A stretch of DNA of 64,000 nt from Blastocatellia bacterium (GCA_963765495.1 CAVXWP010000009.1:269653-333652), one strand, 5' to 3'; numbered from the stretch's first letter, positions 6,648 through 57,217 are shown. Made by a program: numbers and translations. Notes: generated from the letters alone by a model not told the origin.

Positions 6648-6694
6648 TCTTGTTCTCCTGAATGGGTGCAGTCTATTTTGCAATTCTCTGCGGA

Positions 6695-7063: not shown

Positions 7064-7188
7064 GAAGAATCCCCTGTTGAAAGTGATTCGTGACGAGTGA
7101 GGAGTGACGAGTGACGCAAGCAGGGTGGCAGGTTATCAAAAACCTGCGCCTTGCCCGATAGTCACGCATCGCGCATCACGCATCACTA

Positions 7189-9588: not shown

Positions 9589-9608
9589 CTGGGATTATCC
9601 TGCCAGGG

Positions 9609-15750: not shown

Positions 15751-16003
15751 GCCGCCGACCCCGCATTCCCTGCTTCTATGACCGCTATCTTGACAATGCC
15801 TATGCAGTGATATAATTTCGGTACGGGAGAGTACTCCCAGACTCAACAGTTATCCGAGCAAGAGCAGCGGGCCATACTATCGTGCAAATCGAGATTGCTT
15901 GATTTGCGCGCACCCTTTTGAGATTGGCAGATGGCTTCTTTCGATCAGGGTTTTCAGCCTCAGCCGATTGAGTCTCACTGTTCGCCTTTTAAGATTCAAA
16001 AAC

Positions 16004-18345: not shown

Positions 18346-18355
18346 GAAAGCAACT

Positions 18356-19138: not shown

Positions 19139-19163
19139 GTTGATTGATGAAAGGAGCTATGAA

Positions 19164-19922: not shown

Positions 19923-19936
19923 GAGGACAGCTTTAG

Positions 19937-38020: not shown

Positions 38021-38026
38021 TATTCC

Positions 38027-39343: not shown

Positions 39344-39347
39344 TCTC

Positions 39348-40115
39348 TTACTTTGCGCTGGTGCTTTCGCTCTTTTGCGGCAACAGAAAGCCCGGGGCCG
39401 GGTCAGATGACAGCTTGCTTCGAAAATAACTCTTCGCGATGAGATATATGATCGCAGGCACGGCCGTCAACGGATTGATGCCCGAGACCTCATCGCCGTA
39501 GATACACCTGACCGGCACGCTTTCGACCGCAAGCCCCGTTCGAGAAGCGGCAAAGACCATTTCGTTTGGGAAGCCATAGCGGTCATATAACTCGTCAAGC
39601 TCGATCTGTTCGAGCGCCGCCCGCCGAATGACCGTGTATCCGCATTGCGCGTCGAGCGGAATTTCGAATTCTGCCGCATGCCTTGTGAGCCAGCTAAAGA
39701 TCGTATTGCCGATGAACCGGGCCACGGGCATACAGCCTATGGTTTCAAGATGCAGGAAGCGATTGCCCTTCACATAATCGATTCCGCCGACGGCGCGATC
39801 AAGCAGCGCGCTCAAATCCCGTCCGTCCATCTGCCCGTCCCCATCCATTACGCCGATCAGATCGACATCCGCCCTCAGACAATATCTGTAACCTGTTTTC
39901 GTAGCCGCTCCCACACCGCGATTCGCCCCGTGACGAAGCCTGATCAGATTGCCGTTGTCGATCTCGGAGAGCCGCTGCCACGTATCGTCCGTACTTCCGT
40001 CATCAACGGCGACGATCAAATCAACAAAGGAGGGAACTCGACGGATGGCCCGCGCCAGATGATCCTGTTCGTTATGAATCGGCATCACAACCGCTATACG
40101 ATGACCTTTGTACAT
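39348..40115 (-). CDS. GT2-family glycosyltransferase (polyprenyl-phosphate sugar transferase-like)
   Basis: GT-A fold motifs (VVMPIHNEQD, DDGSTDDT, DGDGQ). The ATG at 40115 with a GGAG SD is preferred over the listed TTG at 40127. Confidence 0.75.
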   Translation of the reverse strand: MYKGHRIAVVMPIHNEQDHLARAIRRVPSFVDLIVAVDDGSTDDTWQRLSEIDNGNLIRLRHGANRGVGAATKTGYRYCLRADVDLIGVMDGDGQMDGRDLSALLDRAVGGIDYVKGNRFLHLETIGCMPVARFIGNTIFSWLTRHAAEFEIPLDAQCGYTVIRRAALEQIELDELYDRYGFPNEMVFAASRTGLAVESVPVRCIYGDEVSGINPLTAVPAIIYLIAKSYFRSKLSSDPAPGFLLPQKSESTSAK

Positions 40116-40229
40116 TCTTCGCTCCAAAGATAAGGGTAAGTGAATCGTGAATCGTGATTCGTGAAATAGCTGATTACCTGTTAATTGCCATCAGCCTGTC
40201 AGGTCCGGTCACGCATCACGCATCACGAT

Positions 40230-42023: not shown

Positions 42024-42053
42024 CAGATTCAGCGTCCGGGCATTCAGGCGAAA

Positions 42054-43757
42054 TCACTTTCGCTCGAATATGAGCATCTCGCCAAACTCTTTGCTCAGAG
42101 TGAAATTCTCGCTTATATAATTCCGCATAGGCGGATACTTTTCAGCATCCATGTCTTTTCGGCTCGTGACTATCAGGCAGACATCTTTTTCCTGCACCGA
42201 TCTCAGGGTCTCGGCCCGTTCCGTGTCGCTCACGCCGACGCCTCCCCAGAACTGCGCGCCCGATGGATTGTTTCTATCGGCGAGAAACAGAAGAGACGAA
42301 CCGGCATAGGATTGAGCAAAAAAGTACCCGTCCGGCGCTACCTGCTGTTGAATATAATTTACCGCCGAATCGATTTCGCTCGCTTTGTCTTCGGGAAAAT
42401 AGACACCTCGGCCACGCGCAACGGTCAACTCCGTATTGCTCTTAAATCGAAGGTGATCGTCAAAGTAAGTATTGAAAAACAGCCGCGCACCCATAAGCCA
42501 AAAGATCATCGGCAAGACGCTCAACACGAATCCGGCTCTCTTTGCCCCCCCGAAAAACTCAGGGATGGACGACCTGAAGATGTAGTGGAAGTAAAGTAAA
42601 AGCAGGACTACGAAAGGCATCGCGCCAACAGCTTGTTCGCGTGCAAATCGCGGAAACGATTCCATAAACGCCGCCGCCGCCGCCACAGTCACGGCGAGTA
42701 AAACGGATCGGTCTGTAACTCCGATTTTGCTGCCCAGTATGAACCCCGTAATCCCGGCAGCGATGACGATCATAGGCGCATAAAAAATAAGTCCGTCTAT
42801 CAAATCCTGATCTAAGACCAGTAGGGAAATAATTACAAGTGCAACAATCGAGGCCCAGATCAGGCTCGCTTCCTCGCGGTATCTGAACTTATAAGCAGCC
42901 CACACGCAGGTGGCCAGTAACAAGACAAACATCAAAGGAACCAGAGGCGAGGGCAACCCGGCTAGCCTGCTGACAAGGAACTCGCCCGGCCCGAAAAGCA
43001 GCGTCTTTGCCATTGCCCCGAGCGCCCCCTGAGTCTTCATGAAGATGAGCGCGGGTATGATCAAAACTGCGAATCCTGCCGAAAGCACAAGTGCGCGTCT
43101 GTAATTCTTTATCGCTCGCCTGAGGTTCAGACCTGTCTCTTCGGTATCGAACAGGACCACGGCGATTGATCCGATCAGCGCGTAACCGCCGATGTTATGT
43201 TTGAAGAGCGCGAGCGCGCCCAGCGCCACTCCTGTCGCAAAAAGATAAGCGCCCTTGTGATCGCGCAGAAACCGGATCAACAGATACAGACCCAGCGCGA
43301 GAAACAATTCGCCGTAATGCATGGGCACGGCCTTGAAAGGCCCGTTTGGCCTCAACCAGATGAGCGAATAGAGCGCGGCACTAAACGCCCAGCTTCGCGA
43401 CATTATCTGTCGCGCGCTCAGATAGATCATCAGCGTTGTGAGCGTTTTGAACAGGGCTACGCCAAGCATCGCGTTATACAAAGAGATACCCATTAATTTG
43501 AATATCGCCGCGTTGAGATAAATTATCGCGGGCGGGTAAAGAGTATGAAAATCTCTATACGGCACCTCTCCGGCAAGTATTCGTTCCGCGCCGAAAAGGT
43601 TATATCCGATTGAATAAGAGAGTCCGCTTTCGTGGTTGAAGAGTAATCCGAACAGCGTTCCGGCGAGAGCAAGCACGAGGAAGGCAGTCGCCACGTCCTT
43701 CAACTTTTCGGCGTGGGCAGGAACCCCATTTTCGATTTGCATAGCGCGCGAAATCAT
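42054..43757 (-). CDS. GT-C fold membrane glycosyltransferase paralog (ArnT/PMT-like)
   Basis: Loop GEVPYRDFHTLYPP; polytopic. The ATG at 43757 with a GGAAGAG SD, 14 nt after the upstream stop, is preferred over the listed 43961 start, which would overlap the upstream gene. Confidence 0.55.
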   Translation of the reverse strand: MISRAMQIENGVPAHAEKLKDVATAFLVLALAGTLFGLLFNHESGLSYSIGYNLFGAERILAGEVPYRDFHTLYPPAIIYLNAAIFKLMGISLYNAMLGVALFKTLTTLMIYLSARQIMSRSWAFSAALYSLIWLRPNGPFKAVPMHYGELFLALGLYLLIRFLRDHKGAYLFATGVALGALALFKHNIGGYALIGSIAVVLFDTEETGLNLRRAIKNYRRALVLSAGFAVLIIPALIFMKTQGALGAMAKTLLFGPGEFLVSRLAGLPSPLVPLMFVLLLATCVWAAYKFRYREEASLIWASIVALVIISLLVLDQDLIDGLIFYAPMIVIAAGITGFILGSKIGVTDRSVLLAVTVAAAAAFMESFPRFAREQAVGAMPFVVLLLLYFHYIFRSSIPEFFGGAKRAGFVLSVLPMIFWLMGARLFFNTYFDDHLRFKSNTELTVARGRGVYFPEDKASEIDSAVNYIQQQVAPDGYFFAQSYAGSSLLFLADRNNPSGAQFWGGVGVSDTERAETLRSVQEKDVCLIVTSRKDMDAEKYPPMRNYISENFTLSKEFGEMLIFERK

Positions 43758-43771
43758 CTGCTCTTCCGGGA

Positions 43772-44857
43772 TCAAACCTCGACGCCCTTGGCGGTCACAT
43801 CTCTGATAGGCCTCTCTGTGCGCACAAGGTCTGCGCGAGAGATATAGATAAATCCGCCCGCGATGGCGTTCAGCAATATGGGCGCGAAAGCCAGAAACGA
43901 AAACATTAGCGCCTGCTCGCGCGCGATGCCTGCGCCAGCAAACAGGACTATGAGGGCCCATTCGCGAACGCCAAGCCCGCCCACTGAAATCGGCATCATC
44001 CTGATCAAATCAACAAGCGAGATAAAAGCAAAGATCAGCGGCAATCCGAGCGGCAAGCCCATAGCCTCTGCCACCACGTAACATCCAAGACTCCAAACCA
44101 CCCTTATCAAGACCGATACCAGAACGGTCGAGACGAGCATCCACGGATATTTTCTGAGTTCCGATATTGCTTCAAGCGTGCGCGAGGCGGCTTCGCCAAG
44201 ACGCTCGGCCTTAAATCGCCCGGTCTTAAATCGCCCGGTCTTAAATCGCCCGCCCATCCATCTAAACAATCGCGCGAGCCGCGACGAGACGTAATCGCTC
44301 ATCAAAAGCGACAGCGCGAGGAAGGCGAGCGCGAGCAGCGCCTCGCCCAGGTAGATCAATCGCCCCTCGGGCAGACGACCGTGGCTTGCAACCATTGCGC
44401 CCAGACCTATCAGCAACAGAACGAACAGCCCAACCGTCCTCTCATACACAAGCGTAGAGAGCACGAATGCCTTGTCGTGTATTTCGCGATCTACATAGAC
44501 CAGCCGCGCCACATCGCCGCTTACGCTTCCGCCAGGCACAAAATTGCTGAAAAAGATTCCGATAAGATAATAAACAAAAAGCCGATTTGTATTGATCCTG
44601 TGGCCGCGAACCCTCAGTATCAGGCCCCAGCGATAGGCCATCAGCCAGTTGACCATCACAGTAGCAAGCACCGCAAGCGGCAAAAGCGACACCCGCGTAG
44701 CCCGTATCGCCTCGGCCAATCCGCGAGCATCGGACCTCAGTATGACAATCGCAAGCGCGGTTATGCCTACCGTGATTTGAAGCACTCCGCGCAGGTTCAA
44801 TCCGCGCCGCCGCTCTACTACGGCAACCTCGTTTTCAGAATGACTTTGCGTACTCAT
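43772..44857 (-). CDS. Flippase-like domain protein (UPF0104 / lysylphosphatidylglycerol-synthase TM-region family) carrying an in-frame TGRFK x3 tandem repeat
   Basis: 8 TM helices and the conserved GGSVSGD loop. A 15-bp unit CTTAAATCGCCCGGT repeated 3 times at about 44210-44254 encodes GRFKTGRFKTGRFK. Overlaps the upstream GT2 (ATGA). Confidence 0.65.
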   Translation of the reverse strand: MSTQSHSENEVAVVERRRGLNLRGVLQITVGITALAIVILRSDARGLAEAIRATRVSLLPLAVLATVMVNWLMAYRWGLILRVRGHRINTNRLFVYYLIGIFFSNFVPGGSVSGDVARLVYVDREIHDKAFVLSTLVYERTVGLFVLLLIGLGAMVASHGRLPEGRLIYLGEALLALAFLALSLLMSDYVSSRLARLFRWMGGRFKTGRFKTGRFKAERLGEAASRTLEAISELRKYPWMLVSTVLVSVLIRVVWSLGCYVVAEAMGLPLGLPLIFAFISLVDLIRMMPISVGGLGVREWALIVLFAGAGIAREQALMFSFLAFAPILLNAIAGGFIYISRADLVRTERPIRDVTAKGVEV

Positions 44858-45582
44858 TACTTTGACTGCTGCTTTCCGCGAGGCTTCGAATGAATGTTGA
44901 TCCAGATGCGCGCAAGCTCGGCAAGCGTAGAAAAAACATGACTCGGACGGATGGTTGAACGACCCGCCGGTCTCGGGTAATGCCGCACTCCTATTTCGGC
45001 CATCCTGAAACCGTAGTATCTGGCCTTTGCCAGCACCTCGGCATCGACAAAGAACTTCTTCGATTCGATCTTTATCCGATCAAATATTTCGCGGCGAAAC
45101 AGCTTGAACGCGCAATCAATGTCTCGCACCTTTATCCTGAAGATTATCCTCACAATCAGGTTGAATACCCAGCTTATCACGAGCCGGGTCAGGGGGTCGA
45201 AGCGGTATATGCGGAACCCGCAAACCAGATCGGCGTCCTCGATCAGCGGAAGTAAATCGGTAAGCTCTCGAACATCGAATTGATTATCCGAGTCGGTGTA
45301 AAAGATGAGTTGATGGCGGGCGCTTGTAAAGCCTGTCTTTAGCGCCTCGGCGTACCCTTTGTTTGGATTATGATGCAGCACGCGGATATGATCGGGGTCA
45401 TTACGCGCCAGATGGTCGGCGATCTCGCCCGTGCGATCCCGCGAGCCGTCATTTACTACGATAACCTCCCAATCCTTGAGCGGAAGCGACCGCAGCACAT
45501 CGGCCATTCGGGTTGTGGCCGTCTCGATATTCTCTTCTTCGTTATAGGCCGGAAGTACGGCTGAGATGCTGTCAAAAGGCAT
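44857..45582 (-). CDS. GT2-family glycosyltransferase (dolichyl-phosphate glucosyl/mannosyltransferase-like)
   Basis: AVLPAYNEEENI, VVNDGSRDRT and TDSDNQ motifs of GT-A polyprenyl-phosphate glycosyltransferases. Confidence 0.8.
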   Translation of the reverse strand: MPFDSISAVLPAYNEEENIETATTRMADVLRSLPLKDWEVIVVNDGSRDRTGEIADHLARNDPDHIRVLHHNPNKGYAEALKTGFTSARHQLIFYTDSDNQFDVRELTDLLPLIEDADLVCGFRIYRFDPLTRLVISWVFNLIVRIIFRIKVRDIDCAFKLFRREIFDRIKIESKKFFVDAEVLAKARYYGFRMAEIGVRHYPRPAGRSTIRPSHVFSTLAELARIWINIHSKPRGKQQSK

Positions 45583-45698
45583 AGAGTGATCCGTGATGCG
45601 CGATACGCGATACGTGATTCGTGATTCGTGACCGGACCTGACAGCCAGTCAGCGTTTCCCTGCTATCTCCCTATAAATCACGCATCACACATCACGCA

Positions 45699-47378
45699 TT
45701 ATCCAAGGTATCCCCAGCCGCGCAGACGCTCGCGTATCTCTTCGCTCTCTTCATCGGTCATCGCACCGGCTTTCTCGGCTTCCACTTCGGCAACGGCGTC
45801 GGAAATTCTCACGGGATTGGCCCGCATGTACTCTTCGGTGAAGATCTCTTCCAGCACGCGGCCGTCCATATCCGACGGCACTTCCACGCCAAAGCTGTGA
45901 AGGATGGTCGGCGCGTAATCGATTATTCGCGCTCCCTCAACCGTAGCGCCGCGACGAAGCTCCGGCCCGCGCCCAAGCATTATGCCGTGCATGCGGTGGT
46001 CGCCTGAATTGCCGTAGACCTGAGTGATGAATTTGTTCGATGTGAGATCGAGCGTGCCAAGAGGTTTGTTCGACATATCGGCGGGCAAAAACTGTATGTC
46101 GGGCGACTCGTCGCTGTGCGGCCCCGTGTAGAGGTCTTCGCGCCGCCAGATGGGGCCGATCAACGCCTGGCCGGTTTCGGGGTCCGAGAGCGCGCCAAGC
46201 TTGCCGATGATCGACTCCAGTGTGCGATCATACTCAGCGCCCGGCTCGACTATCCCGTGCTTTTCGCGCCCGCGCAGGTTGATAAATATCTGCCCGTAAT
46301 TGCCCTTTGAAAAGGCCGTTGTCCGCGACCAGTCTACGTCTTCGAGCGAAAGCATCAGCATATTGGCCAGCTTCATCAGGCTCGAGCGATTTGTCACGCC
46401 TACGGAAAGACGCAAGTGAGCAAGCCCCAGTTTCATAGCCGAGCGATAGGCCAGATCAGGCGTAAGCCCGAGCCTGAACAGCACCCGCTTCATCCGCGTC
46501 ATCGCATCGCGCTTCAACACAAGCAAGCCTTCGTTTATCAGCCACACGTTAAAGCAGAGGAATTTCTTTATAGGCCCGAATCCGTGATCCGATCCCATAT
46601 AAATAGTCGCGTCCTCGCCTGCTTCATCAAACATCTCGCCAAGCGTAGTGTCTACCGCGTGCCAGTATTCGTGAATGCGTCCGATGTGGGCCAGATGCTC
46701 TTTGCGATTAAAGAAAGGGTGCGTCTCGTCGAGCAGATGCCACAGTTCGTGCTGAAACCTGTCGGTCCCCCAGTAGTGAGTGGCAAAGACATCCCAGCCG
46801 TATTCGTTCATCAGGTAGCGGTTGACTTTGGTCTTATATTCGAGTTCTTCAAATAGCTGGTTGAGAATCTTATCCACATTGCCGGGCGTATAGACCTCGG
46901 TAATGTAAAGCTGGTACGGGCCGAATCGCGACTCGATTTCCTTTAGCAGGCTCTCGGGATAGGTGAAGTCCTGGCGGCCTCGCGGGGTGAGAAAATCCGA
47001 GACCATAAGTCCGTTTGCCATCATGGGCGGATAGGTGCAGGGCATATTCGTGACTATGGCCTGCCGACCCATGCGGCCAAGTATGTCCCAGAAAGGAAGC
47101 CCGTCGCGCGCCCTGGAACTGACGGGCATATCGGGCAGTTCGCCCGAATCCTTGCGCCGGAGCAAAAACTCGAATATGCCGTGTTTTCCGGGATTTTTGC
47201 CGGTCATCCACGACACCCAGGCGGTCGGCGTGATCGGCGGAATAGTGGTTTCAAGCAATCCGCGAACGCCTTCACTGATAAAGGCGGAGAGTCGGGGCAT
47301 CAAGCCCTCTTTCATCAACGGATCGAGAACGTCGAATGTCGAGCCATCAAGGCCGATGAATAGAACTTTTTTACTCAT
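45699..47378 (-). CDS. Cytoplasmic alkaline-phosphatase-superfamily enzyme (type I phosphodiesterase/NPP-like), paralog 1, with the C-terminal EE..RERLRGWGYLG tail
   Basis: AP-superfamily metal ligands: GLDG near the N-terminus, nucleophile region PPITPTAW and SDHGFG. No signal peptide. ATG at 47378 (MSKKVLFIGLDG). Confidence 0.7.
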   Translation of the reverse strand: MSKKVLFIGLDGSTFDVLDPLMKEGLMPRLSAFISEGVRGLLETTIPPITPTAWVSWMTGKNPGKHGIFEFLLRRKDSGELPDMPVSSRARDGLPFWDILGRMGRQAIVTNMPCTYPPMMANGLMVSDFLTPRGRQDFTYPESLLKEIESRFGPYQLYITEVYTPGNVDKILNQLFEELEYKTKVNRYLMNEYGWDVFATHYWGTDRFQHELWHLLDETHPFFNRKEHLAHIGRIHEYWHAVDTTLGEMFDEAGEDATIYMGSDHGFGPIKKFLCFNVWLINEGLLVLKRDAMTRMKRVLFRLGLTPDLAYRSAMKLGLAHLRLSVGVTNRSSLMKLANMLMLSLEDVDWSRTTAFSKGNYGQIFINLRGREKHGIVEPGAEYDRTLESIIGKLGALSDPETGQALIGPIWRREDLYTGPHSDESPDIQFLPADMSNKPLGTLDLTSNKFITQVYGNSGDHRMHGIMLGRGPELRRGATVEGARIIDYAPTILHSFGVEVPSDMDGRVLEEIFTEEYMRANPVRISDAVAEVEAEKAGAMTDEESEEIRERLRGWGYLG

Positions 47379-47439
47379 AACAAAAGACCGGAAAATATAA
47401 CTGATGAGTGCGCGGATTTCAACCGCACCCGTCCTGGCG

Positions 47440-47580
47440 ACAGGGCTGTAACAAAGTCGGGTGGAAATGTAGGGGCAGGGCTTGTCCCTGCCCGGATCGC
47501 CCAAAGGGCGATGACAGCGATTCGGGCAGGGACAAGCCCTGCCCCTACATTACATTTCAAGCTACTTTGTTATAGCCCTG
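47440..47580. repeat. Nested ~140-bp palindrome containing two inverted copies of the GGGCAGGGACAAGCCCTGCCC(CTACATT) REP-like hairpin plus a GATCGCCCAAAGGGCGATGAC mini-hairpin, bounded by CAGGGCTGTAACAAAGT / ACTTTGTTATAGCCCTG
   Basis: Intergenic, between AP-family paralog 1 (start 47378) and the Wzx stop (47669). The same REP-like unit occurs inside the GT4 coding sequence at about 38640-38705. Confidence 0.7.
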
Positions 47581-47668
47581 GTCTTGGCGAGAAGTTCAGT
47601 TTCCCGCAAAAAATTGATCAGGATTGTCACGTGATACGGGCAGGCTAAAAACTGACCTTCCCACCCAT

Positions 47669-49141
47669 TCAATCCTTCAATCCCAACTGGGTTTCATTCC
47701 AACTGCGATGCTTCAACAAAACCAGCGCCCGGCTCCAGTATTCCGACATCCGGCGCCGCTCTTTCTCGTCATAGAAACGCAAGCCGAAAAGCAGGAGCGG
47801 AAACGACAGCGCGAGCACTACCTTGATCAATATTGACAGATAGAGCCTGCCCCGGCTTTGCGTTTCGCCCCGCAGAAAATCTATCAGATAAAAGAGCGCC
47901 GTAATCCCTCCGCCAACCATCCCGATTGTAAATACCCTCCCCCACTCATAACGGACTTTGAAGAAAAGATTCGAGACCTTGTACCTCAAAACGCAAAAGA
48001 AGAGGTATGAGAGCAATGTAGCCACCGTAGCGCCCAGCACGGCATAACGCGGTATCAACAGAAAATTCAACGCTATGTTTACAAGCAGCGCGGCTGTCGT
48101 CACGATTGGCGCGTAGATGGTCCGCTTCCTGAGCGTTATGCCTATGTTCAGCACGCGAGTGGCGCTATCGAGCACGGCAGACATCGCAAGCAAGGGGATG
48201 ATGGTCGCGGCGGGCCAGTAGCTTTTCAGGCCATAGAGTCTCAGGCCGTCCCCGGCTACCGATGATATGCCGAGCGCCAGAAACATGCTGACGAGCGCGA
48301 TATAGGTGAGCACCCGCGAGTAATATTCTTCGGCTCCCTCTTCATTCATCACCGAAAATCGCATGACGGTCCAGACCTGGCTGAAGGGAACGGTCACAAG
48401 GATAGTCACTACCGAAATCAGCGTGTTCGACATGGCATAGACGCCAAGCTCTTTGTCGGTGCCGTATCGTTCGAGAAAGAAGCGGTCGATCATCATAAAG
48501 AGCGTGAACGATATCTGTCCGAATATCAGCGGCGTGCCAAAGGTGAGCATTCCGCGCAACTCTGAAAATGAAAAGGTGAGCCTCAACTCGCGCCAGACGA
48601 CAAGGAAAAATATCACCGCCTCAAAGATGGTTCCCGCAAGCCGGCCTATCAAAACATTTTCAACCGAGGCATCGACCACTACGACAAGGTAAGAGATCGC
48701 AAGCAACTGAAATACGAAGGCTATGATGTTGAGTATCGAATAGCGTGTCGAGCGAAAATTCACTCTCAGGATCGTATCTGGGATGAGCGTTATGATGTCG
48801 AAAAACCCTATATAAAAAATCAGGCGTAAGAGGTTTGCCCGGCTCGCGTCGCCCGAAAATACAAGCCAGGAAATCTGCGGCGCGAGCATGTATAATGCGC
48901 CTGTGAATAGCGCAGACGACAGGAGCAGAAAAATGAGCGTAGTGCCTACGATACGATGGCGATGCTCGGGGTCTTCCGTGTCATAGTAATGGCGGAAAAA
49001 TGCCTGATTCAGGCCGAATTTCAGCACTATGGTCTCAAGCGTCAGCACTATCATGACAAGCGACAGAATGCCGAACTCTCTGGCCGTCAGGTGCCGCGCA
49101 TAGATCGGGACCAGGACAAGGCCGAAGGCGCTGTTTACCAC
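47669..49141 (-). CDS. MOP-superfamily polysaccharide/O-antigen flippase (Wzx-like)
   Basis: 490 aa, about 14 TM helices, GTG start with a GGAAG SD. Confidence 0.7.
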   Translation of the reverse strand: MVNSAFGLVLVPIYARHLTAREFGILSLVMIVLTLETIVLKFGLNQAFFRHYYDTEDPEHRHRIVGTTLIFLLLSSALFTGALYMLAPQISWLVFSGDASRANLLRLIFYIGFFDIITLIPDTILRVNFRSTRYSILNIIAFVFQLLAISYLVVVVDASVENVLIGRLAGTIFEAVIFFLVVWRELRLTFSFSELRGMLTFGTPLIFGQISFTLFMMIDRFFLERYGTDKELGVYAMSNTLISVVTILVTVPFSQVWTVMRFSVMNEEGAEEYYSRVLTYIALVSMFLALGISSVAGDGLRLYGLKSYWPAATIIPLLAMSAVLDSATRVLNIGITLRKRTIYAPIVTTAALLVNIALNFLLIPRYAVLGATVATLLSYLFFCVLRYKVSNLFFKVRYEWGRVFTIGMVGGGITALFYLIDFLRGETQSRGRLYLSILIKVVLALSFPLLLFGLRFYDEKERRRMSEYWSRALVLLKHRSWNETQLGLKD

Positions 49142-49206
49142 GCTTCCGATCCCGAATATGAGCGTGTGCTTTACGGTCTTTTTTATCTTGTCGTAAATCG
49201 TAACCC

Positions 49207-51873
49207 TTACTCCTGTCGAGCCGCGCGTCTCTGTCTTCGCACAAACGCTATGATCAGAAACGCAAAGACGACTCCCGCCCCGGCCAGGCTCGCATAAACG
49301 GAAGACCAGAAGGCTGCGGGCGCAAATTGAAATGATACCACATGACCGCCGGGCGGCACTCTTACGGCCCGCATGGTGATATTGGCTTGCAGGATGTCGG
49401 CAGGCTCCCCGTCAATCGTAGCCCTCCAGCCGGGATAGTAATTATCGCTCAGCACCAGCAGGCCGCCCTGTTCGCTTTCCGTAGAGATCACAACCCGGTT
49501 GCGAGCGTCTTCGGTTATCCGAGCCTCGCCGCCGGATTTGAGATTTGAGATTTGAGATTTGAAATCTGGGGTTTCAGATTGCGAATTATCAGGCGCTTCG
49601 ATGACGGCAGTCGTGTGAGGGTCGAAACCCGGATCGTTCATCGCCGAGATCGCATACGAATGGTTGGGAACCGTCTCCGCCTGCTCCGCAAAGAACGCGC
49701 GCGGCAGGGCCTGTTTGTTCTCATAAACCGCGATTCCCTCTTCCGAGGCAATCAGGTCATAGCCTTCAAGAGGCGGGAGCGAACTGTGAGTCAGCACATA
49801 CCTGACATTCAACAGGTCGAAATATCGAGAGCGGGCCTGATCGAAGACTACGTGGCTCAAGTAGGGCTGTTTCTCGATGAGCGCGGCATACTGGCGATAC
49901 CACTTTGGAAACTGCTGATTCTTTCCCGTCACGGTCGAGATGCGATAGGGCAGCAGAGTGTTTGGCGGGGCGATGATCTTCTCTCTATCGGGCAAATCCG
50001 ACGCCCGGCGATTCGTGTCGAGATCGGAAGGGACTATGAGCACGCGGCCCGGTGGGAGCCGGTGCAACAATTCGGTTATCTTTGTTTCGGGAAAGACACG
50101 CGAGCGATCAAAGGTCGGGTTGAATTGCGCGCTGTTCCAGAAGAGGTCTACTAAAAGCATTAGCATCAACAGGGCAAAAAAAGCTCTGCTACTCAACTGC
50201 GACGAAGCGAATTTGCTCAGCAGGATTACAACTCCGACAATCAGCGCGAGCGGTATGATCAGCGCGGCATCGGGCGGCGTAAACTGAGCGGCAAGCGCGG
50301 CTGCCGATCTTCGCAGGAAAGCGATTTTACCCGATTGCTCGTTGTCCAGGGCGAATCCGGTTAGCTCTAACAGGTAAGACGCGATGACTCCTAAAATCAC
50401 AAATGCGATTGCTCCCCACAGAAACTTTCGAGCGATGCGGGCAAAAGAAGCTAGCAGGTCCGGCTTCGCACTCAAGAGCAAATCGATTCCAAACGCGGCA
50501 AGCACAGCCGCCGCGAATATGAACAGTACCCAGGCGCGAACTATCACGCGAATGACCTGCAAGACGGGGATAAACCTCGTCATATGAACATAAATCGGAG
50601 CCGCAATCATTATGACCAGAGCAAGGGCGGCAAGCAGGGCGAAGAAGACGACGCGGGGACGCTGAGACGCTGAGAGGCGGCGATTCTGTTTCAGCCAGAA
50701 AAGGCCGAAGCCGAGCGGGGCAAGCGCGGCAATGCCCATATACAGGATGTGGTCGTGCGAGACTCCGAGCGCGGTAAAGATTCTGACTATTTCGGCGTCG
50801 TCGGCCGTGCCAAAGAGATTAGGAAAAACCAGCGTAAACAGATACCACGGGGGCAAGTAGATGTAACCCAGTTCCGTTGGCACTATGCGCCGGTTTGAAA
50901 ATCTGAGCAATTGCATCACGGGAATCCACGCGGGGGCCGCAAGCAGGAAACCTACCACGAGAGTTACGGCAAGCATCCCGAGCGCATTCAAGTTTTTCTT
51001 TGACCGCCAGTTCTTGAATTCGAATGCAAAGAATAGGTAGTAGAGCGCAATCGCGCCTACGTAATAAATCTGGTTCTGCATCCATCCGCAATAAAATTGC
51101 AGCGCCAGGAAGACGCCCGCGATAATCGCCTGCGTGTAGCTCTGCTGCCTTGCGGCGCGGTCTACGAACAGCAGGATCAGCGGCAGCCACATAAGCCCGC
51201 CCCACCATCCAAGCCCCGTAACGTGTAATAACGAATGCGACGACAGAACGAATACGAGCGCGCCAAGCAGGCTGGCGGGCTCGCTCGCGCCCACTCCGAT
51301 AAGAAAGATGTACATGAAGATTGCCGCAAGCATCAGTTCAAAGATGCGGGCGAGTGAATAGCCTAGCGGCACGTCAAAGAATTTATAGAAAAGCAGAAAA
51401 GGCGAAAGCGTTCTGGTCACTCCGTCGGCATAGATGGGGTGCCCCGCCATCGTGTAGGGATTCCACAACGGCATCTCTCCATCGCGGTACGCCTGAACCA
51501 CAAAGTAATCGCGCGTTATATAGGTATCGGTCAGATCGCGGCGGTTGTAGTTGTAATCGATGCTCTCGCCCGCGTAGTACCCCCAGGGAAGCTGATTGTT
51601 GAGCGTGGCTACATCGACAAAAGTCTCGCCAAGAAAGAGCACCCGCCAGAACAGGGCTATGATAACCAGCGCGAGAAACGAGGCATTTACAGCGTGGCGC
51701 TGAAAGGATGAAGGATGAGGGATGAGGGATTTCAGGAGGGATAAGGGATGAGGGATGAGGGATTTCAGGAGGGATGAGGGATGAGGGATGAGGGATGAAA
51801 AGGACTCTGAGGAATTATCCTGATAACCAGCGGGCCGCTTTTCATCAGACTGTCGCGTCAGAATCTTTTTCAT
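49207..51873 (-). CDS. YfhO-like large polytopic membrane protein (putative GT-C glycosyltransferase); N-terminal boundary uncertain
   Basis: Multi-TM N-terminal body and the conserved YfhO-type C-terminal region LSDNYYPGWRATIDGEP...GGHVVSFQF plus a final TM. The 5-prime ~170 nt of the listed ORF is built from the GGGATGA heptamer-repeat element (SLIPHP repeats), so the true start may be downstream. An in-frame TTTGAGA heptamer block sits at about 49531-49565. Confidence 0.55.
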   Translation of the reverse strand: MKKILTRQSDEKRPAGYQDNSSESFSSLIPHPSSLLKSLIPHPLSLLKSLIPHPSSFQRHAVNASFLALVIIALFWRVLFLGETFVDVATLNNQLPWGYYAGESIDYNYNRRDLTDTYITRDYFVVQAYRDGEMPLWNPYTMAGHPIYADGVTRTLSPFLLFYKFFDVPLGYSLARIFELMLAAIFMYIFLIGVGASEPASLLGALVFVLSSHSLLHVTGLGWWGGLMWLPLILLFVDRAARQQSYTQAIIAGVFLALQFYCGWMQNQIYYVGAIALYYLFFAFEFKNWRSKKNLNALGMLAVTLVVGFLLAAPAWIPVMQLLRFSNRRIVPTELGYIYLPPWYLFTLVFPNLFGTADDAEIVRIFTALGVSHDHILYMGIAALAPLGFGLFWLKQNRRLSASQRPRVVFFALLAALALVIMIAAPIYVHMTRFIPVLQVIRVIVRAWVLFIFAAAVLAAFGIDLLLSAKPDLLASFARIARKFLWGAIAFVILGVIASYLLELTGFALDNEQSGKIAFLRRSAAALAAQFTPPDAALIIPLALIVGVVILLSKFASSQLSSRAFFALLMLMLLVDLFWNSAQFNPTFDRSRVFPETKITELLHRLPPGRVLIVPSDLDTNRRASDLPDREKIIAPPNTLLPYRISTVTGKNQQFPKWYRQYAALIEKQPYLSHVVFDQARSRYFDLLNVRYVLTHSSLPPLEGYDLIASEEGIAVYENKQALPRAFFAEQAETVPNHSYAISAMNDPGFDPHTTAVIEAPDNSQSETPDFKSQISNLKSGGEARITEDARNRVVISTESEQGGLLVLSDNYYPGWRATIDGEPADILQANITMRAVRVPPGGHVVSFQFAPAAFWSSVYASLAGAGVVFAFLIIAFVRRQRRAARQE

Positions 51874-51900
51874 CCCTCATCCCTCATCCCTCATCCCTCA
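51703..51900. repeat. Second, expanded copy of the GGGATGA-heptamer palindromic element (internally duplicated left arm)
   Basis: GGATGAAGGATGAGGGATGAGGGATTTCAGGAGGGATAAGGGATGAGGGATGAGGGATTTCAGGAGGGATGAGGGATGAGGGATGAGGGATGAAAA - spacer - TTTTTCATCCCTCATCCCTCATCCCTCATCCCTCA. Confidence 0.7.
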
Positions 51901-53541
51901 AAGGTATCCCAGGCTGCGTAGTTTTTCTTCGATTAATTTTTCTTCCGATTCGGTCAGCCTGCTTTCAGGCGCGGACGAAGTGGAAGCGGGTGAATCGGTT
52001 TGCAAAGGATGTTGAGCCAGAAAATCATCGGCGCAGGCTTCCGTTAAGACGCGCCCGTCGAGGTCGCCGGGTACGGGAAGCCCGGCCAGATACATAATCG
52101 TTGGAACAAGGTCGTAAACCGTGGGCGAAGCAATCGCGGCTTGCGGGCGTATGCCGGGCCCTTTGCAAATCAGGATGCCTTCCTGTCTGTGGTCGCCACT
52201 CCACCAGAACCCGCGAGCGCGCACCTCGTCGGGCGGCTCGCCAAGATTCGCCTGCGTATTCCAGTAAACATACAGGTCGCTTGCTCGGGTGGTGAACGGG
52301 CCTCGGTAGACCTCATCGCGCATGGCTACGCGCTCGACCACAGGGTTGCCGCGCGCATCGGTCCACTGGCTCAATTTTTCGATGATCTGTTTGCAGGTCT
52401 TTTTATAGTCTGCGGCAGGGACGCGGCCTTCCGCATTGCGTCCGGCAAGATTGATGTTTATAACGTGGCGGCCCGGTTCCGTGTAAGCCATGGTGCGCGA
52501 CCAGTCGATTGATGAGTAAAACGAATCTTTTTCAACCGCCTGCAATCTTTCGACGCGAGATGCGCCCATGCCCGATTTGATCTTTTCTCTGATCGAGGGA
52601 GGCAGCAGAGTGCGCGCCGCGCGTTTGCCCGCGCCTATCAAAGAGGCGCGAGTCTGAGCCTGATTGCTGCGCGTCATGAAGCCGTTTGATTCGAGCCATT
52701 CGGCCAGATGATAAGACGCGCCCGTGTGCGGTCCCATACCATGATCTGAAATGACGTAGACCTGAGTGCTGCTGTCTGCGTGCTTCAATAAAACGGCCAT
52801 CGCAGAATCGAGCGCCTTATAGATCGAAAGCAACGCATCGCCCGACCCAACGGCCCCGGCCTTTTCAGGCTCGTCTTGATTATGGTCGAGATACCTCCAG
52901 AGGTTATGGCCGCCCCAGTCGCTTGCGGTGTAAACGGTCATGAAAAAATCTGTGGAGCGCGACTCCAAGAGGTATTCGGCGGCGGCGGTCTGAGCTTCGA
53001 TCAGCTTCATCCAGAGGGCTATCGCATCATCGATCCGACCCGCGCTCATCAAATCGCCAAGCCCCTGCGGCGTGAAGTGATAATCGGGAACGCGCGCGAG
53101 CAACTGAGAGCGAAGCTCTGCGGGAGAGAACGCATCTTCATTTAGTGCCGGAGCATCGAGACCACTCACAAGGAATCCGCCCGGCGCGCACTCGGCCGGG
53201 TAAGTCATCGGCACGTTGAGAAACCCCGAGGTCAAACCGTGTCGGTGAAGGTGCGCGCCTACGAGTTCGCCGTGCCGGTCTCCGCCTTTGAAAAAGACCT
53301 GGCGGCCTGTCTCGAAATCCCGATCCGAAAAGACAAACAATCCGTGGCGACCGGGATTGAGTCCCGTAAGAATGGAGGTCCACGCCGATGCGCTGTGCAT
53401 ATTCGGGGTTGATAGAAAACGCGAGCTTGCGCCTTCCTCGATCAACCCGGCGATGACAGGCAACTGGCCCGCCCGACACCACGGCTCAATCAAATCCATC
53501 GTAGCCGCATCGAGTCCGATGACTAAAATCTTTGGCTTCAT
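51898..53541 (-). CDS. Cytoplasmic AP-superfamily (phosphodiesterase/NPP-like) enzyme, paralog 2, ending ...SEEKLIEEKLRSLGYL
   Basis: MKPKILVIGLDAAT, nucleophile region STPNMHSASAW and SDHGMG. No signal peptide. Confidence 0.7.
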   Translation of the reverse strand: MKPKILVIGLDAATMDLIEPWCRAGQLPVIAGLIEEGASSRFLSTPNMHSASAWTSILTGLNPGRHGLFVFSDRDFETGRQVFFKGGDRHGELVGAHLHRHGLTSGFLNVPMTYPAECAPGGFLVSGLDAPALNEDAFSPAELRSQLLARVPDYHFTPQGLGDLMSAGRIDDAIALWMKLIEAQTAAAEYLLESRSTDFFMTVYTASDWGGHNLWRYLDHNQDEPEKAGAVGSGDALLSIYKALDSAMAVLLKHADSSTQVYVISDHGMGPHTGASYHLAEWLESNGFMTRSNQAQTRASLIGAGKRAARTLLPPSIREKIKSGMGASRVERLQAVEKDSFYSSIDWSRTMAYTEPGRHVININLAGRNAEGRVPAADYKKTCKQIIEKLSQWTDARGNPVVERVAMRDEVYRGPFTTRASDLYVYWNTQANLGEPPDEVRARGFWWSGDHRQEGILICKGPGIRPQAAIASPTVYDLVPTIMYLAGLPVPGDLDGRVLTEACADDFLAQHPLQTDSPASTSSAPESRLTESEEKLIEEKLRSLGYL

Positions 53542-53582
53542 AGAAAACTTCGGGTCTCAAATCTCAAATCTCAAACCTGAGA

Positions 53583-55196
53583 TCATTCGATGTATCCGAG
53601 TGCTCGCAATCGCTCGCGCAATTCGGCCTCTTCACCTTCCTTGTAAACCGGCTCAGACTCGGGGCCGTCTTTTCCGCCCTGCCTGTATGAACTCCCCTGC
53701 CGCGCAAGTTCTTGATGGTCGGTGAAGATTTCTGTGAGCGCCCGCCCGTCCATGTCTTCGGTGAGCGGAGAGCCGAGCGAGTAAAGCGCCGTCGGGCCTA
53801 CATCGCGGAGGTTTGGCAAAGGGTCGAAATCGGTCTGACTCTTTATGCCCCGGCCCCAGGCGATAAATATCCCGTCGCGCGAGTGCGTACCCGTAGTCGA
53901 ATCGGCCGGGACTATCAGGTCGCCATAGCTCGGGCGTTCGTTGTATACGTATTCGTCTCGTCTGGGGATCATCACAAGATCGGGCAGGCGGTCGGCCCAT
54001 CGCCCTCGAAATGCTTCCTTGCGGCTCATTACTTTCTCAAATACCGGCTCGCCGTCTTCGGGCGAGATCAATTTTTTTAACGCCGCTCGCGCTTCTTCAA
54101 GCACTTCATCAAACCGGCTTTCGCTCACCCTTCCCTGCGGCTCGCGTCCCGCCAGATTTACCCACACGCCCTTGTCTTGAGCGAAAAAGGCGCGGGTGCG
54201 TTTCCAGTCGATTTCGTCCAGGAACGCGCTGCCGTAAGCTACCTTGCGATCGAGCACGCTGCCCGAGGGGGTCGAGGGCAAGAGCCGCCGCGAGATTTTT
54301 TCTTTTAGCGATCTCACCTTTGCCCGGCCTTTTCTTGAAGCCGGGGTCTTGAATGCTAGCAACCCCGCAGATGCCAGCACTTCATTTACGCGCACCTCGA
54401 ATAGCTCCGAGCAGAAACCGTGATCCGACACTATGAAGACCCGCGCATCGGCGGGTAAACGTTCGATCAGGCGACCGAGCGCCGCGTCGAGTTGTTCGTA
54501 TGTCTCGTGGATAAACGAGCGAAACTCGCGTGGCGCGTTTGGGTCGTGGCGCGGATGCAAAGGGTCCATGTCGGCCCAGTAATCGTGCTGCGCGCGGTCG
54601 AGCACGGAAAAGACCATCATCAGAAAATCCCATTCGCCCTTATCCATCAAAAATTGAGTGACGCGCTCGTGCATAAGTGTTGCTCGACGGAATTCGTCGG
54701 CGCGGGCGCGTTTATCGGGGTTTCGAGTCGGCTCTATGATGTAATCGGGCAGTCGGGCCAGTATCTCTTCCTTAAGCGAGTGCGGGTGCGTGTAATCCGA
54801 TGACGCGCCGGGCGTGAGCATCCCCGTGACCATAAAGCCGTTTATCGCTTCGGGCGGATAAGTGGTCGGAACGTTTACCACGATTGAACGCCCTCCGCCG
54901 CGCTCGGTCAGCAAATCCCAGACGGGCCGGGTCATTATATCGCGCCCGCTCATGGCGTGTACGCCGTAGCTTGCCCTGTCTTTTATAAAAGGCGAAAAGA
55001 CGCCGTGCATCCCTTCGCTTGTTCCCGTAGTGCAGCTTGCCCAGCCCGGAAAGCTGTTTGGCAGAATGGTCGAACGAAGCGGCGCGTGACACCCTTCTGC
55101 CATCAGGCGAGACAAAACGGGCAGGCGTCCCGCTTCCGCTAGAGGCGTGATCAGATCAAAAGTCGCGCCGTCGAGTCCTAAGATTACTGTCTTCAT
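53583..55196 (-). CDS. Cytoplasmic AP-superfamily (phosphodiesterase/NPP-like) enzyme, paralog 3, ending ...EGEEAELRERLRALGYIE
   Basis: MKTVILGLDGATFD, STILPNSFPGW and SDHGF motifs. Overlaps the stop of paralog 4 by 4 nt. Confidence 0.7.
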   Translation of the reverse strand: MKTVILGLDGATFDLITPLAEAGRLPVLSRLMAEGCHAPLRSTILPNSFPGWASCTTGTSEGMHGVFSPFIKDRASYGVHAMSGRDIMTRPVWDLLTERGGGRSIVVNVPTTYPPEAINGFMVTGMLTPGASSDYTHPHSLKEEILARLPDYIIEPTRNPDKRARADEFRRATLMHERVTQFLMDKGEWDFLMMVFSVLDRAQHDYWADMDPLHPRHDPNAPREFRSFIHETYEQLDAALGRLIERLPADARVFIVSDHGFCSELFEVRVNEVLASAGLLAFKTPASRKGRAKVRSLKEKISRRLLPSTPSGSVLDRKVAYGSAFLDEIDWKRTRAFFAQDKGVWVNLAGREPQGRVSESRFDEVLEEARAALKKLISPEDGEPVFEKVMSRKEAFRGRWADRLPDLVMIPRRDEYVYNERPSYGDLIVPADSTTGTHSRDGIFIAWGRGIKSQTDFDPLPNLRDVGPTALYSLGSPLTEDMDGRALTEIFTDHQELARQGSSYRQGGKDGPESEPVYKEGEEAELRERLRALGYIE

Positions 55197-56539
55197 TTAT
55201 ACATCGAGCGCCCATCCATCCCGGCAGGCACCTGAAGCCCCATCGAGGAGAGCAAAGTCGGAGCAACATCCGTTATGTGAGGCTTATCAGAGCGCAGTTC
55301 GCCGGCCTGCGAGCTTATGAATAGCGTAGCGTCATCCTGCGTGTGCATCCCCGTAAAGATTTCGCGGTCCATCAACTCCGTCTTATTTACCGCGCCCTTC
55401 AGATCGTAGCCGTAGACGGGCTGCGCGCACAGATCGGGGGCCGACAAAAGAGCGGGGCCTCGAAATAACTCGTCGCGTTCGTAAACCCGACCGACTACCC
55501 TCTGCCCTTCATCGCTTATCTCCGAAAGCCCCTGCTTTATCTCTTGGATCAGCCTTCCCGCATCCTCAGGGTCGACCGTGCCGCCCGGATACCTGCCCTT
55601 CAGATTTATGTAGACGCGACCGGGGTCCATAGCAAATGCCCGCGAGCCTTCGGCTATCTCTTCAATCGAGCGCGCATTATCTTTGAGGTTGAGATAGCCG
55701 TGATCGGCAAGCCATCGGTTCAAATAGACCTGTTTCTTTATCCCCGTAAAACCGTGATCGCTCATCAGCATAACGGTCTCGTCGCGCAATCGTTCGCCAA
55801 TCTGCCCGATAAAATGATCTACGCGGCTGTAAAACTCTCTGAAGGCCGAATGGTATTTGTGATTCTCGTCTTCAATCGCGTCCATGAAGAAATGCTGCAA
55901 GCGGTCGGTTTCGGTCACTACGCCTACAAACAGGTCCCACGGCTCGTTGTCATACAGATCGAGCATCACAGCCACGCGGCGTTCGAGCGCCTTAAGGATG
56001 TCGTCCATCAGCGCATCGTGCGACTGCTGCACTTTGCGCGCATCAACGTCGATGCGATAATCCATCCGTTCGAGCTTTGGAACAAGCTCTGCCGGGTAGG
56101 TGGCTTTCTTTATATCAATAGCCACAAACCCTGAAATGAGTATGCCGTTCAAAGGCTTTGCCGGATAAGTCGAAGGCACGTTGATGACGATTGAGCGGCG
56201 GCCCTGACTGCCCACGGCGTCCCAAAGCGTCTGGCTCTTGATGTGGCGCGAATTTGGGAAATAGATTTTGTAGCTGTTCGGCTGAAGATCGAGAAATCCG
56301 TAAATACCGTGGCGTCCGGGGTTTGCGCCGGTCATAAAAGATGTCCACGCCACAGATGAGATGTCCGGGATGGAAGTGTCCATCTGGAGCAGGGTTCCGC
56401 GCCGGGCCATCTCACCCATTCGCGGCATGGTGCCGTCTTCGATAAAGCGGCGCATCAGCGTGCAGGGAGTGCCGTCGAGCCCGAGAAGTACGGCGCGGCG
56501 CGGCGACTCCTTTGATTTGAATCTGTCAAACAGTCCCAT
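55193..56539 (-). CDS. Cytoplasmic AP-superfamily (phosphodiesterase/NPP-like) enzyme, paralog 4, lacking the C-terminal tail
   Basis: LLGLDGTP, TSIPDISSVAW and SDHGF motifs. Ends ...GRSMYK. Confidence 0.7.
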   Translation of the reverse strand: MGLFDRFKSKESPRRAVLLGLDGTPCTLMRRFIEDGTMPRMGEMARRGTLLQMDTSIPDISSVAWTSFMTGANPGRHGIYGFLDLQPNSYKIYFPNSRHIKSQTLWDAVGSQGRRSIVINVPSTYPAKPLNGILISGFVAIDIKKATYPAELVPKLERMDYRIDVDARKVQQSHDALMDDILKALERRVAVMLDLYDNEPWDLFVGVVTETDRLQHFFMDAIEDENHKYHSAFREFYSRVDHFIGQIGERLRDETVMLMSDHGFTGIKKQVYLNRWLADHGYLNLKDNARSIEEIAEGSRAFAMDPGRVYINLKGRYPGGTVDPEDAGRLIQEIKQGLSEISDEGQRVVGRVYERDELFRGPALLSAPDLCAQPVYGYDLKGAVNKTELMDREIFTGMHTQDDATLFISSQAGELRSDKPHITDVAPTLLSSMGLQVPAGMDGRSMYK

Positions 56540-56545
56540 GCTAAA

Positions 56546-56604
56546 ATCCAGAGTTTTGAGTTTTGAGTTTTGAGTTTTGAATTAACTCAAAATTCAAAAC
56601 TCAA
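56546..56604. repeat. Heptamer-armed hairpin (GAGTTTT)4 GAATTAA CTCAAAATTCAAAACTCAAAACT between AP-family paralog 4 and cysC
   Basis: Near-perfect inverted repeat of tandem heptamers. A sister copy at about 57351-57416 lies upstream of cysC. Confidence 0.7.
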
Positions 56605-56611
56605 AACTTGC

Positions 56612-57217
56612 TTAAACGTAGCCGAGAGATTCGAGGCGGCGGCGCACTTCCTCGTCGTCATCTTCGGAGTAGATTTCAGACTCGACATAAGGAATCAGCA
56701 TCATCTCTTCGAGTTTGTTGATGATGCGAAGGGCGCTTTGTTCCGGCGTCTCCAGATTTGTTTCGACGATCACATCGGGCGAGAGAGGCTCTTCGTAAGG
56801 GTCGTCGATGCCTGTGAAATTCTTGATCTCGCCCGCGAGAGCTTTTTTATAAAGGCCCTTTACATCGCGGTCGGCCAGCACGTCAATCGGGCATTTAACA
56901 AAGACCTCTACGAAATCGCCGATCATCTGACGCACCTCATCGCGCACGGCGCTGTAAGGCGAGATCGCCGCCGCTATGGCTACGACATCATTGCGTGTCA
57001 GCAGGTTGCAGACAAACCCTATGCGGCGGATGTTTGTGTCGCGGTCCTCTTTTGAAAAACCGAGCCCCTTTGAAAGATTGGTGCGAACTATATCGCCGTC
57101 AAGGACTTCGACCTTATGATCGCGCCTTTTCAACTCGGCTTCGATTCTGCGCGCAAGCGTAGTCTTGCCCGCCCCTGAAAGCCCTGTAAACCAGATAGTA
57201 AATCCTCTTTGTGCCAT
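56612..57217 (-). CDS. cysC: Adenylyl-sulfate (APS) kinase with an appended C-terminal tail ...[17 protein letters not shown]
   Basis: P-loop GLSGAGKTT and canonical APS kinase core over ~170 aa, then a ~30 aa extension. The ATG at 57217 with a GGAGATTAT SD is preferred over the listed 57295. Confidence 0.85.

Follow-up and report, generated by a model that had tools for sequence, protein, structure and literature searches.

Why should enzymes of unrelated folds, encoded side by side, end in the same short peptide? The question is raised by a stretch of 64,000 nucleotides from a Blastocatellia bacterium (GCA_963765495.1, CAVXWP010000009.1:269653-333652), here termed the window, which encodes an adenosine 5'-phosphosulfate (APS) kinase, CysC, and four paralogs of the alkaline phosphatase (AP) superfamily, AP1 to AP4, together with a glycan locus. 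An initial annotation of this DNA had reported a common C-terminal motif in AP1, AP2, AP3 and CysC that is missing from AP4, and the translations agree, AP4 ending at its AP core (...MDGRSMYK). The sequence comparisons described below lead us to favour, with modest confidence, an interpretation in which the shared element, termed the LGY helix, is a portable module for protein-protein docking or assembly that is specific to sulfate-activation and sulfation systems and joins CysC and the AP enzymes.

The motif is longer than first noted and extends over ~20 residues, with the consensus hydrophobic-[S/T]-x-[DE][DE]E-x-x-[IVL]-x-x-R-L-x-x-L-G-Y-[ILV] followed by 0-1 residues. Taking the Gly of LGY as position 0, the register comprises Y/M/L at -16, S/T/K at -15 (S/T/N in the wider family), an acidic turn, I/V/L at -8, R/K at -5, L at -4, L/W at -1 and a final G-Y-[ILV], a pattern that would correspond to a helix that starts with an N-cap, presents a hydrophobic stripe and is capped by Gly at its C-terminal end. 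AlphaFold2 (AF2) models of AP3 and CysC, with mean predicted local distance difference test (pLDDT) scores of 86 and 85, respectively, place a helix at residues 520-532 of AP3 (pLDDT ~74) and at residues 185-197 of CysC (pLDDT ~74). In CysC this tail helix is preceded by the last core helix (158-171) and by a linker (172-184) whose pLDDT averages ~54 and dips below 50. The NCBIfam APS-kinase model ends at residue 175 of 202, and the tail thus lies beyond the catalytic domain, as originally proposed. The models depict the tail as a capped amphipathic helix carried on a variable, low-confidence linker. The acidic positions -14, -12 and -10 mirror Arg at -3, -5 and -7 about -8.5, and Tyr at -16 mirrors Leu at -1; this symmetry would suit antiparallel pairing of two helices, and helix-dipole stabilisation would explain it equally well. 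The DNA segments encoding the tails are pairwise only 39-63% identical, with differences at synonymous sites, so the likeness of the tails is held at the protein level, and gene conversion between them is ruled out by the same differences. A six-frame search of the window with a regular expression located the motif in genuine open reading frames (ORFs) at these four C-termini only and did not find it at the other ~40 gene ends of the window.

Comparison with close relatives points to constraint on the tail itself. It is present in all of the best 120 CysC relatives (75-100% identical), in which the linker varies freely; the segment EE[VI]R[RKS]RL[EK][AS]LGY[VIA] is intact in 118 of these, the other two displaying point substitutions. 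The best 120 AP3 relatives, truncated sequences excepted, keep EEAELRERLRALGYI[EK] with minor changes. Metagenome fragments of AP1 orthologs retain MTDEES[DE]EIRERLRGWGYLG alongside a variable linker, and AP2 orthologs at L086, L087, L100 and other loci retain the tail. These comparisons support strong purifying selection on the tail.

A 32-position profile built from the tails only was run against 1.84 billion representative proteins and returned 194 matches at E<=1e-3, with the best E-values reaching 5e-9. Among the 146 newly retrieved matches, R(-5), L(-4), L(-1), Gly and Tyr are 97-100% conserved and 142 end one or two residues after G-Y, and 102 of the 146 have two residues past the Tyr; the endings vary and include IE, L, VE, LD, LE, V and LG. 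Because HMMER local alignment is blind to protein ends, the C-terminal placement is a real property of the motif. Conservation of the extreme C-terminus is also what would be displayed by a degradation tag, a chaperone tag or a membrane-targeting amphipathic helix, but we consider a function of this type very improbable. Degrons are short and unstructured, whereas here an N-cap is conserved, the register is fixed over 17 residues and the helix is capped. The HbYX proteasome-activating motif is excluded, as Gly precedes Tyr in 100% of matches and two residues commonly follow it, while the strongly acidic N-terminal half disfavours anionic membranes. In addition, the motif also occurs internally and at N-termini. 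Carriers of at least 120 residues (n = 44) comprise 20 PF01663 proteins, four APS kinases, one ribbon-helix-helix (RHH) protein and one DUF4214 protein, the remainder being mostly AP C-terminal fragments or chimeric gene calls.

The profile also retrieved a family of small proteins, termed sm-LGY, of 65-80 residues (typically ~75), which consist of an RHH-like N-terminal domain, a linker and the LGY tail. The RHH assignment is weak: three of 15 sequences match RHH_5 (E<=2e-4), below the curated cut-off, and weak matches to the NikR N-domain were observed. One protein (P0345) contains two tandem RHH-LGY modules and matches RHH_1 with E=2.8e-6. In a search of GTDB covering one genome per species, in which ORFs were called and clustered and the representatives checked with Pfam, sm-LGY was found in 80 genomes or loci (L006-L085; for example L039:9959-10201 and L030:9995-10228); it also occurs at L002:2091-2315. 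The archaeal carriers belong to Thermoplasmata, Woese-, Nanohalo-, Aenigm-, Heimdall-, Hod- and Hadarchaeota, Methanosarcinales and Altiarchaeales, and the bacterial ones to Aminicenantes, Dehalococcoidia, Dojkabacteria, Eubacteriales and Deferribacteres. In most cases the small gene is the first of an operon, and two operon types occur, one comprising Sat, DHH and/or AP, CysC and then a sulfotransferase or an epimerase, and the other CysD and CysN. Of 66 loci, 34 have Sat as the next gene and 51 have Sat, CysD, CysN or CysC no more than five genes away. The proposal that the tail is linked to the production of 3'-phosphoadenosine 5'-phosphosulfate (PAPS) is firmly supported by this result, since a profile made from the tails only retrieved small proteins that usually head sat/cysDN-cysC operons. 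The sm-LGY proteins are likely to be regulators or adaptors of these operons.

Specificity for the pathway was also evident when a C-terminal regular expression was applied to the 1297 ORFs of the sm-LGY loci. It matched all sm-LGY proteins (72/72), 11 of 18 CysD and 6 of 40 CysC proteins, and 5 of the 1029 other ORFs. These five are three second small proteins beside the sm-LGY gene and two DUF2061 proteins between cysD and cysN, and the motif is therefore found in 0 of 1024 ORFs outside the sulfate-activation families in the loci of the 80 genomes; it is not a general C-terminal feature. The DUF2061 proteins (L007:9696-9950 and L049:966-1220) are small membrane proteins of DPANN archaea and carry an extra ..KKLRDLGYI tail past the Pfam domain. 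In favour of a chance origin, in which acidic linkers happen to be followed by a generic LxxLGY helix cap, the tail matches PG_binding_2 (helix 1), POTRA and designed helical proteins weakly. Such an origin is effectively refuted by the frequency of the motif, which ends four of the ~44 genes in the window against none of the 1024 unrelated ORFs, by profile E-values as low as 5e-9 with nearly all matches C-terminal, and by the linkage of the matches to one pathway.

Inspection of sulfate-activation enzymes revealed that the helix is native to some of them. Archaeal-type CysD ends in [KR]LRxLGYM, of which Pseudomonas syringae CysD (PDB code 1ZUN) retains ..KKRQGY(F) only, and many APS kinases of canonical length natively end in ..KLKELGYVE; the solved APS kinases 7YQ0 and 8A8H end in ..KLMELGYL and ..AQKLGYL, respectively. 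The tail of CysC is not foreign; what it re-creates is the helix in which APS kinases of the archaeal type natively end. CysC of the window, an APS kinase by its score of 280.7 bits on NCBIfam PRK00889 (cut-off 244) and its intact P-loop (GLSGAGKT), keeps the native last helix in a degenerate form (..KLEEMMLIP), followed by a 13-residue linker and a fresh LGY helix. A set of pseudo-APS kinases (P0266, P0272, P0294, P0316, P0342, P0395 and L003:10001-10600) displays a degenerate P-loop and has lost LDGD; the C-terminal helix and the LGY tail are kept in these proteins, which argues for a tail function independent of catalysis.

AP1 to AP4, which share ~30% mutual identity, belong to the PF01663 branch of the superfamily by Pfam score (105-160 bits, cut-off 23), by NPP/PhnA-like fold and by their Asp and His columns. 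Metal-ligand-type positions are invariant in the alignment (D9, D200, H204, D258, H259 and H438), and the best Foldseek matches of AP3 are Xac NPP, PhnA and ENPP1, at identities of at most 16%. No run of 7-10 conserved columns is present in the alignment of the four paralogs or in one of 17 diverse AP-LGY proteins. The median scores of AP1, AP2 and AP3 are 196-264 bits against tailed AP proteins and 99-152 bits against tail-less ones. AP1-3 being closer to tailed APs, their tails are inherited within a subfamily and not convergent, so that of the earlier description, a helix convergently appended to co-clustered enzymes of two unrelated folds, the discrete helix on two folds in one operon holds and the convergence fails for the AP paralogs. 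Sequence scores thus assign AP1-3 to a widespread tailed subfamily, termed AP-LGY, present in glycan clusters of many lineages, and AP4 to a tail-less one. Tailed AP genes of other lineages sit in Wzx/Wzy-type glycan clusters, one of which adds a sulfotransferase, a sulfatase and a second tailed AP. Four membrane-anchored AP proteins (P0325, P0332, P0377 and P0384), which have 4-6 hydrophobic segments of ambiguous topology, bear one LGY motif close to the N-terminus (..ALREKLRALGYLD..) and another at the C-terminus. The closest relatives of AP4 are tail-less archaeal APs of sm-LGY loci (40.5% and 37% identity), and the tail is missing from all 50 AP-superfamily ORFs that neighbour sm-LGY genes. 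The gene for tailed CysC is followed by a tail-less AP4 gene in 17 of the 18 metagenome loci whose sequence continues downstream, and also in L086 and L087; the CysC-AP4 pair stands alone in three of those metagenome loci. Neither Pfam nor NCBIfam has a model for the tail or for the sm-LGY proteins, and a profile search of the Protein Data Bank (PDB) with the tail identified no entry to which the helix is appended. There is no description in the searchable literature of the motif, of the small proteins or of a function for this AP branch, and literature searches on AP-superfamily sulfotransferases, RHH with ATP sulfurylase, COG3379 and the CysDN tail returned nothing relevant.

Taken together, the LGY helix natively ends archaeal-type APS kinases and CysD, and portable copies are found on a large cytoplasmic AP-superfamily subfamily, RHH-like proteins, DUF2061 membrane proteins and pseudo-APS kinases. 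In the window, CysC has retained its degenerate native last helix and re-displays a free LGY helix on a linker, AP1-3 have received their tails from the AP-LGY subfamily, and tail-less AP4 is the obligatory neighbour of tailed CysC. If they serve in docking, the helices would hold the PAPS-making kinase and the AP enzymes in one assembly, in which PAPS or APS could be handed directly to the AP enzymes by substrate channelling, and the latter would modify the glycan built by the products of the adjacent glycosyltransferase, flippase and YfhO genes. Binding might involve antiparallel pairing of two LGY helices, or the helix might dock into a groove on tail-less AP4 or on ATP sulfurylase.

Several observations weigh against such a module. 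No candidate receptor (AP4-type, Sat, CysN or CysC) is common to every locus type: ~25 Thermoplasmata loci combine sm-LGY with Sat, DHH, CysC and a sulfotransferase and have no AP, and DPANN loci often lack cysC. AP4 is thus not established as a universal receptor, and neither is CysN or Sat. The loci with a CysC-AP4 pair are mostly close relatives and not independent samples, and L-x-x-L-G-Y is a generic helix-capping pattern, as the weak matches to PG_binding_2 and POTRA illustrate. At L088 and L090 the AP-LGY gene encodes the one LGY protein within 10 kb, and no sulfate-activation gene lies within that distance. Finally, the LGY helix of solved APS kinases belongs to the fold itself, so that its role could be purely structural.

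The last point leads to the main rival, in which the helix acts in an intramolecular or homo-oligomeric manner, packing on its own enzyme or clamping a homodimer as a lid, stabiliser or autoinhibitor, with no bridging of partners. In 7YQ0 and 8A8H it is indeed the last helix of the fold, at L088 and L090 no second LGY carrier lies within 10 kb, and AF2 assigns moderate confidence, above the disordered range, to the tail helix and, around the conserved GSSY and VY, to part of the linker of AP3. However, RHH-like proteins of ~75 residues and DUF2061 membrane proteins bear the same helix although they contain no enzymatic core that it could regulate. In CysC of the window a second, tethered helix is present in addition to the native last one, pseudo-kinases retain the helix, and its distribution follows the pathway and not the fold. 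On this balance a purely intramolecular or homodimeric role is unlikely, and the docking module remains our preferred interpretation.

Sensing of a metabolite was also considered. The Arg ladder and the Tyr would then contribute to a site for a nucleotide sulfate (PAPS, 3'-phosphoadenosine 5'-phosphate (PAP) or APS), providing feedback on the enzymes and on the RHH regulator. R(-5) is 97% conserved, Arg is common at -7 and -3 and Tyr is invariant, the motif is restricted to proteins that make, use or regulate APS or PAPS, and it is present on RHH regulators, a class whose members, such as MetJ and NikR, often bind effectors through their C-terminal parts. A helix of 20 residues is nevertheless too small to bind a nucleotide alone, and no precedent of ligand binding was found, making this explanation decidedly improbable.

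The co-occurrence of AP genes and sulfotransferases bears on what the AP enzymes may do. In the operons of L006-L085, 23 contain an AP only, 15 a canonical sulfotransferase only, 26 neither and none both; the exclusion has a Fisher p=5e-4, uncorrected for phylogeny. AP genes are also anti-correlated with the DHH gene in these operons; for the DHH protein of archaeal loci of this kind, PAP phosphatase activity has been demonstrated by experiment (PMC10322725). The cluster of the window likewise combines CysC with four APs and contains no canonical sulfotransferase. AP enzymes may substitute for sulfotransferase or PAP phosphatase function. A more ambitious extension, which we regard as speculative and rather doubtful, is that the LGY helix is the universal zipper of a bacterial and archaeal sulfation metabolon, joining the APS- and PAPS-forming enzymes, an RHH regulator that senses the state of the complex, and COG3379-type APs; the latter would be unrecognised sulfuryl transferases using APS or PAPS, or PAP-processing enzymes, in place of canonical sulfotransferases. 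Should the docking function hold, the helix would provide a 20-residue handle with which to pull down and map sulfate-activation and sulfation machinery, which is poorly understood in Acidobacteriota and many uncultured archaea. It also ties a large uncharacterised AP-superfamily branch, common in polysaccharide clusters, to PAPS metabolism, with possible new sulfotransferase chemistry for glycan modification, and the motif is a simple sequence marker for sulfation-related genes in metagenomes.

The features of the locus are listed in Table 1. They belong to a single minus-strand, co-directional cluster that spans 36.5-57.3 kb and is flanked by genes for MutS and an amino-acid permease. Transcription proceeds in the order cysC, AP4, AP3, AP2, YfhO-like GT-C glycosyltransferase, Wzx-type flippase and AP1, with the 3' end of AP4 overlapping the start of AP3 by 4 nt, and other Blastocatellia keep the order CysC-AP4-AP3-AP2-YfhO-flippase-AP1. 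The glycan locus comprises the YfhO-like GT-C, the Wzx-type flippase, AP1, GT2, LPG_synthase_TM and two PMT_2 GT-C genes, followed by GT2, GT4 and a MurJ/Wzx-like flippase. The longest AP1 ORF (45699-47504) begins with a TTG codon 41 codons upstream of the conserved MSKKVLFIGLDG, at which the family alignment begins; the ATG at 47378 fits this alignment better and is the preferred start.

Table 1. Coordinates of the CysC, AP and glycan genes and of the LGY helices in the window
Feature	Coordinates	Strand	Evidence
cysC, APS kinase, 201 aa, linker and LGY helix appended	56612..57217	minus	Pfam APS_kinase E=6e-62
CysC LGY helix	56615..56671	minus	coordinates from tail DNA comparison; AF2 helix 185-197
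AP4, tail-less AP-superfamily (PF01663) enzyme	55193..56539	minus	Pfam E=2e-46
AP3, PF01663 enzyme, AP-LGY subfamily	53583..55196	minus	Pfam E=2e-43
AP3 LGY helix, YKEGEEAELRERLRALGYIE	53586..53645	minus	AF2 helix 520-532
AP2, PF01663 enzyme, AP-LGY subfamily	51898..53541	minus	Pfam E=6e-30
AP2 LGY helix, LTESEEKLIEEKLRSLGYL	51901..51957	minus	translation
AP1, PF01663 enzyme, AP-LGY subfamily	45699..47378	minus	Pfam E=6e-34
AP1 LGY helix, MTDEESEEIRERLRGWGYLG	45702..45761	minus	tail DNA comparison
Remaining co-directional glycan locus, without AP1	36524..51873	minus	Pfam and NCBIfam matches

Other elements of the window were observed. An element based on (GGGATGA)n occupies positions 51706-51900, beginning at the AP2 stop codon; it contains three 33-nt direct repeats (51706-51804) and a 65-nt inverted repeat (51769-51833 and 51835-51899, 82% complementary), and it covers the annotated N-terminus of the YfhO-like protein, where it encodes the peptide SLIPHPSSLLK three times. 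The true start of the YfhO-like gene may lie further downstream, and the hairpin may be a terminator, an attenuator or an element resembling repetitive extragenic palindromic sequences. On the plus strand, positions 15794-21166 encode a recurrent gene set of obscure function, comprising a Ser/Thr protein kinase, a protein with PEGA and FGE-sulfatase domains, two DUF4384 proteins and a trypsin-like peptidase with CarboxypepD_reg. A signalling block at 5418-13313 encodes a GAF-HD phosphohydrolase, an 801-aa protein with a C-terminal HATPase_c_2 domain, a PocR-GAF-GGDEF diguanylate cyclase and a sigma-54 response regulator.

Among known systems, the analogies drawn in the initial annotation were with encapsulin cargo peptides, bacterial microcompartment (BMC) encapsulation peptides and dockerins, and they do not hold, no shell or cohesin genes being present in the window or in related loci. 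The tails do resemble BMC and encapsulin peptides in being short terminal amphipathic helices or peptides, joined by variable linkers to several co-encoded enzymes, and the predicted terminal helices of AP3 and CysC, which follow low-confidence linkers that vary among orthologs, conform to the BMC-peptide format, in which a terminal amphipathic helix has about 18 residues. A targeting peptide for an encapsulin or BMC compartment, or for a cohesin-like scaffold, is nonetheless exceedingly unlikely. The BMC shell (PF00936 and PF03319), encapsulin and cohesin families are missing from the Pfam scan of 40 window ORFs and from the recurrent neighbours in more than 110 related loci, and carriers of the helix include DPANN archaea with tiny genomes. 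The tails also contain no G-S-L or LTVGSL-type motif, and their sequence is far more conserved across phyla than that of encapsulation peptides. In comparison with dockerins, the tail is a single helix devoid of the Ca-binding loop pattern, and neither a dockerin nor a cohesin match was obtained with Pfam.

A peptide of related logic is the C-terminal tail of CysE, which docks into CysK in the cysteine synthase complex and is mimicked by CymR partners and CdiA toxins. In both cases a C-terminal peptide occurs on a sulfur-assimilation protein and on unrelated proteins, and that of CysE binds a second protein of the pathway. However, the CysE tail consists of a few unstructured residues with an essential terminal Ile that enters the active site, in contrast with the 20-residue capped helix described here, which has 0-2 variable residues past the Tyr. 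The tails are consequently not CysK-docking tails of the CysE type, as they have no invariant terminal Ile and their varied endings lie on a predicted helix. A description of the cysteine synthase complex is available (PMC6829319). The sm-LGY proteins, with an RHH-like N-domain, a linker and a C-terminal helix, recall RHH antitoxins and repressors whose C-terminal tails serve in partner binding or oligomerisation, such as ParD, CcdA, FitA and, with its tetramerisation helix, Mnt, and the sm-LGY gene is the first of the operon that it accompanies; in sm-LGY operons, however, sulfate-activation enzymes and no toxin gene follow, and the RHH assignment is the weak one noted above. The pseudo-kinases with an LGY tail are reminiscent of fungal ATP sulfurylase, in which a dead APS-kinase-like module is kept for allosteric regulation or assembly.

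The nearest relative of the tail is the native end of APS kinases (7YQ0 and 8A8H) and of CysD, which displays the same [KR]-L-x-x-L-G-Y-[LIVM] at the C-terminus of enzymes of the same pathway. In the native kinases it constitutes the last core helix and no linker precedes it, whereas in the window it is an extra copy, held on a linker, with an added N-cap and acidic turn, and it is also found on unrelated folds. In fused PAPS synthases (Sat-CysC) the enzymes are coupled covalently; here the coupling would be non-covalent and mediated by a portable helix. The closest kind of element already known is the short docking helix, of which the LGY helix would be an example with a broad cross-domain spread and an unusually clean link to one pathway.

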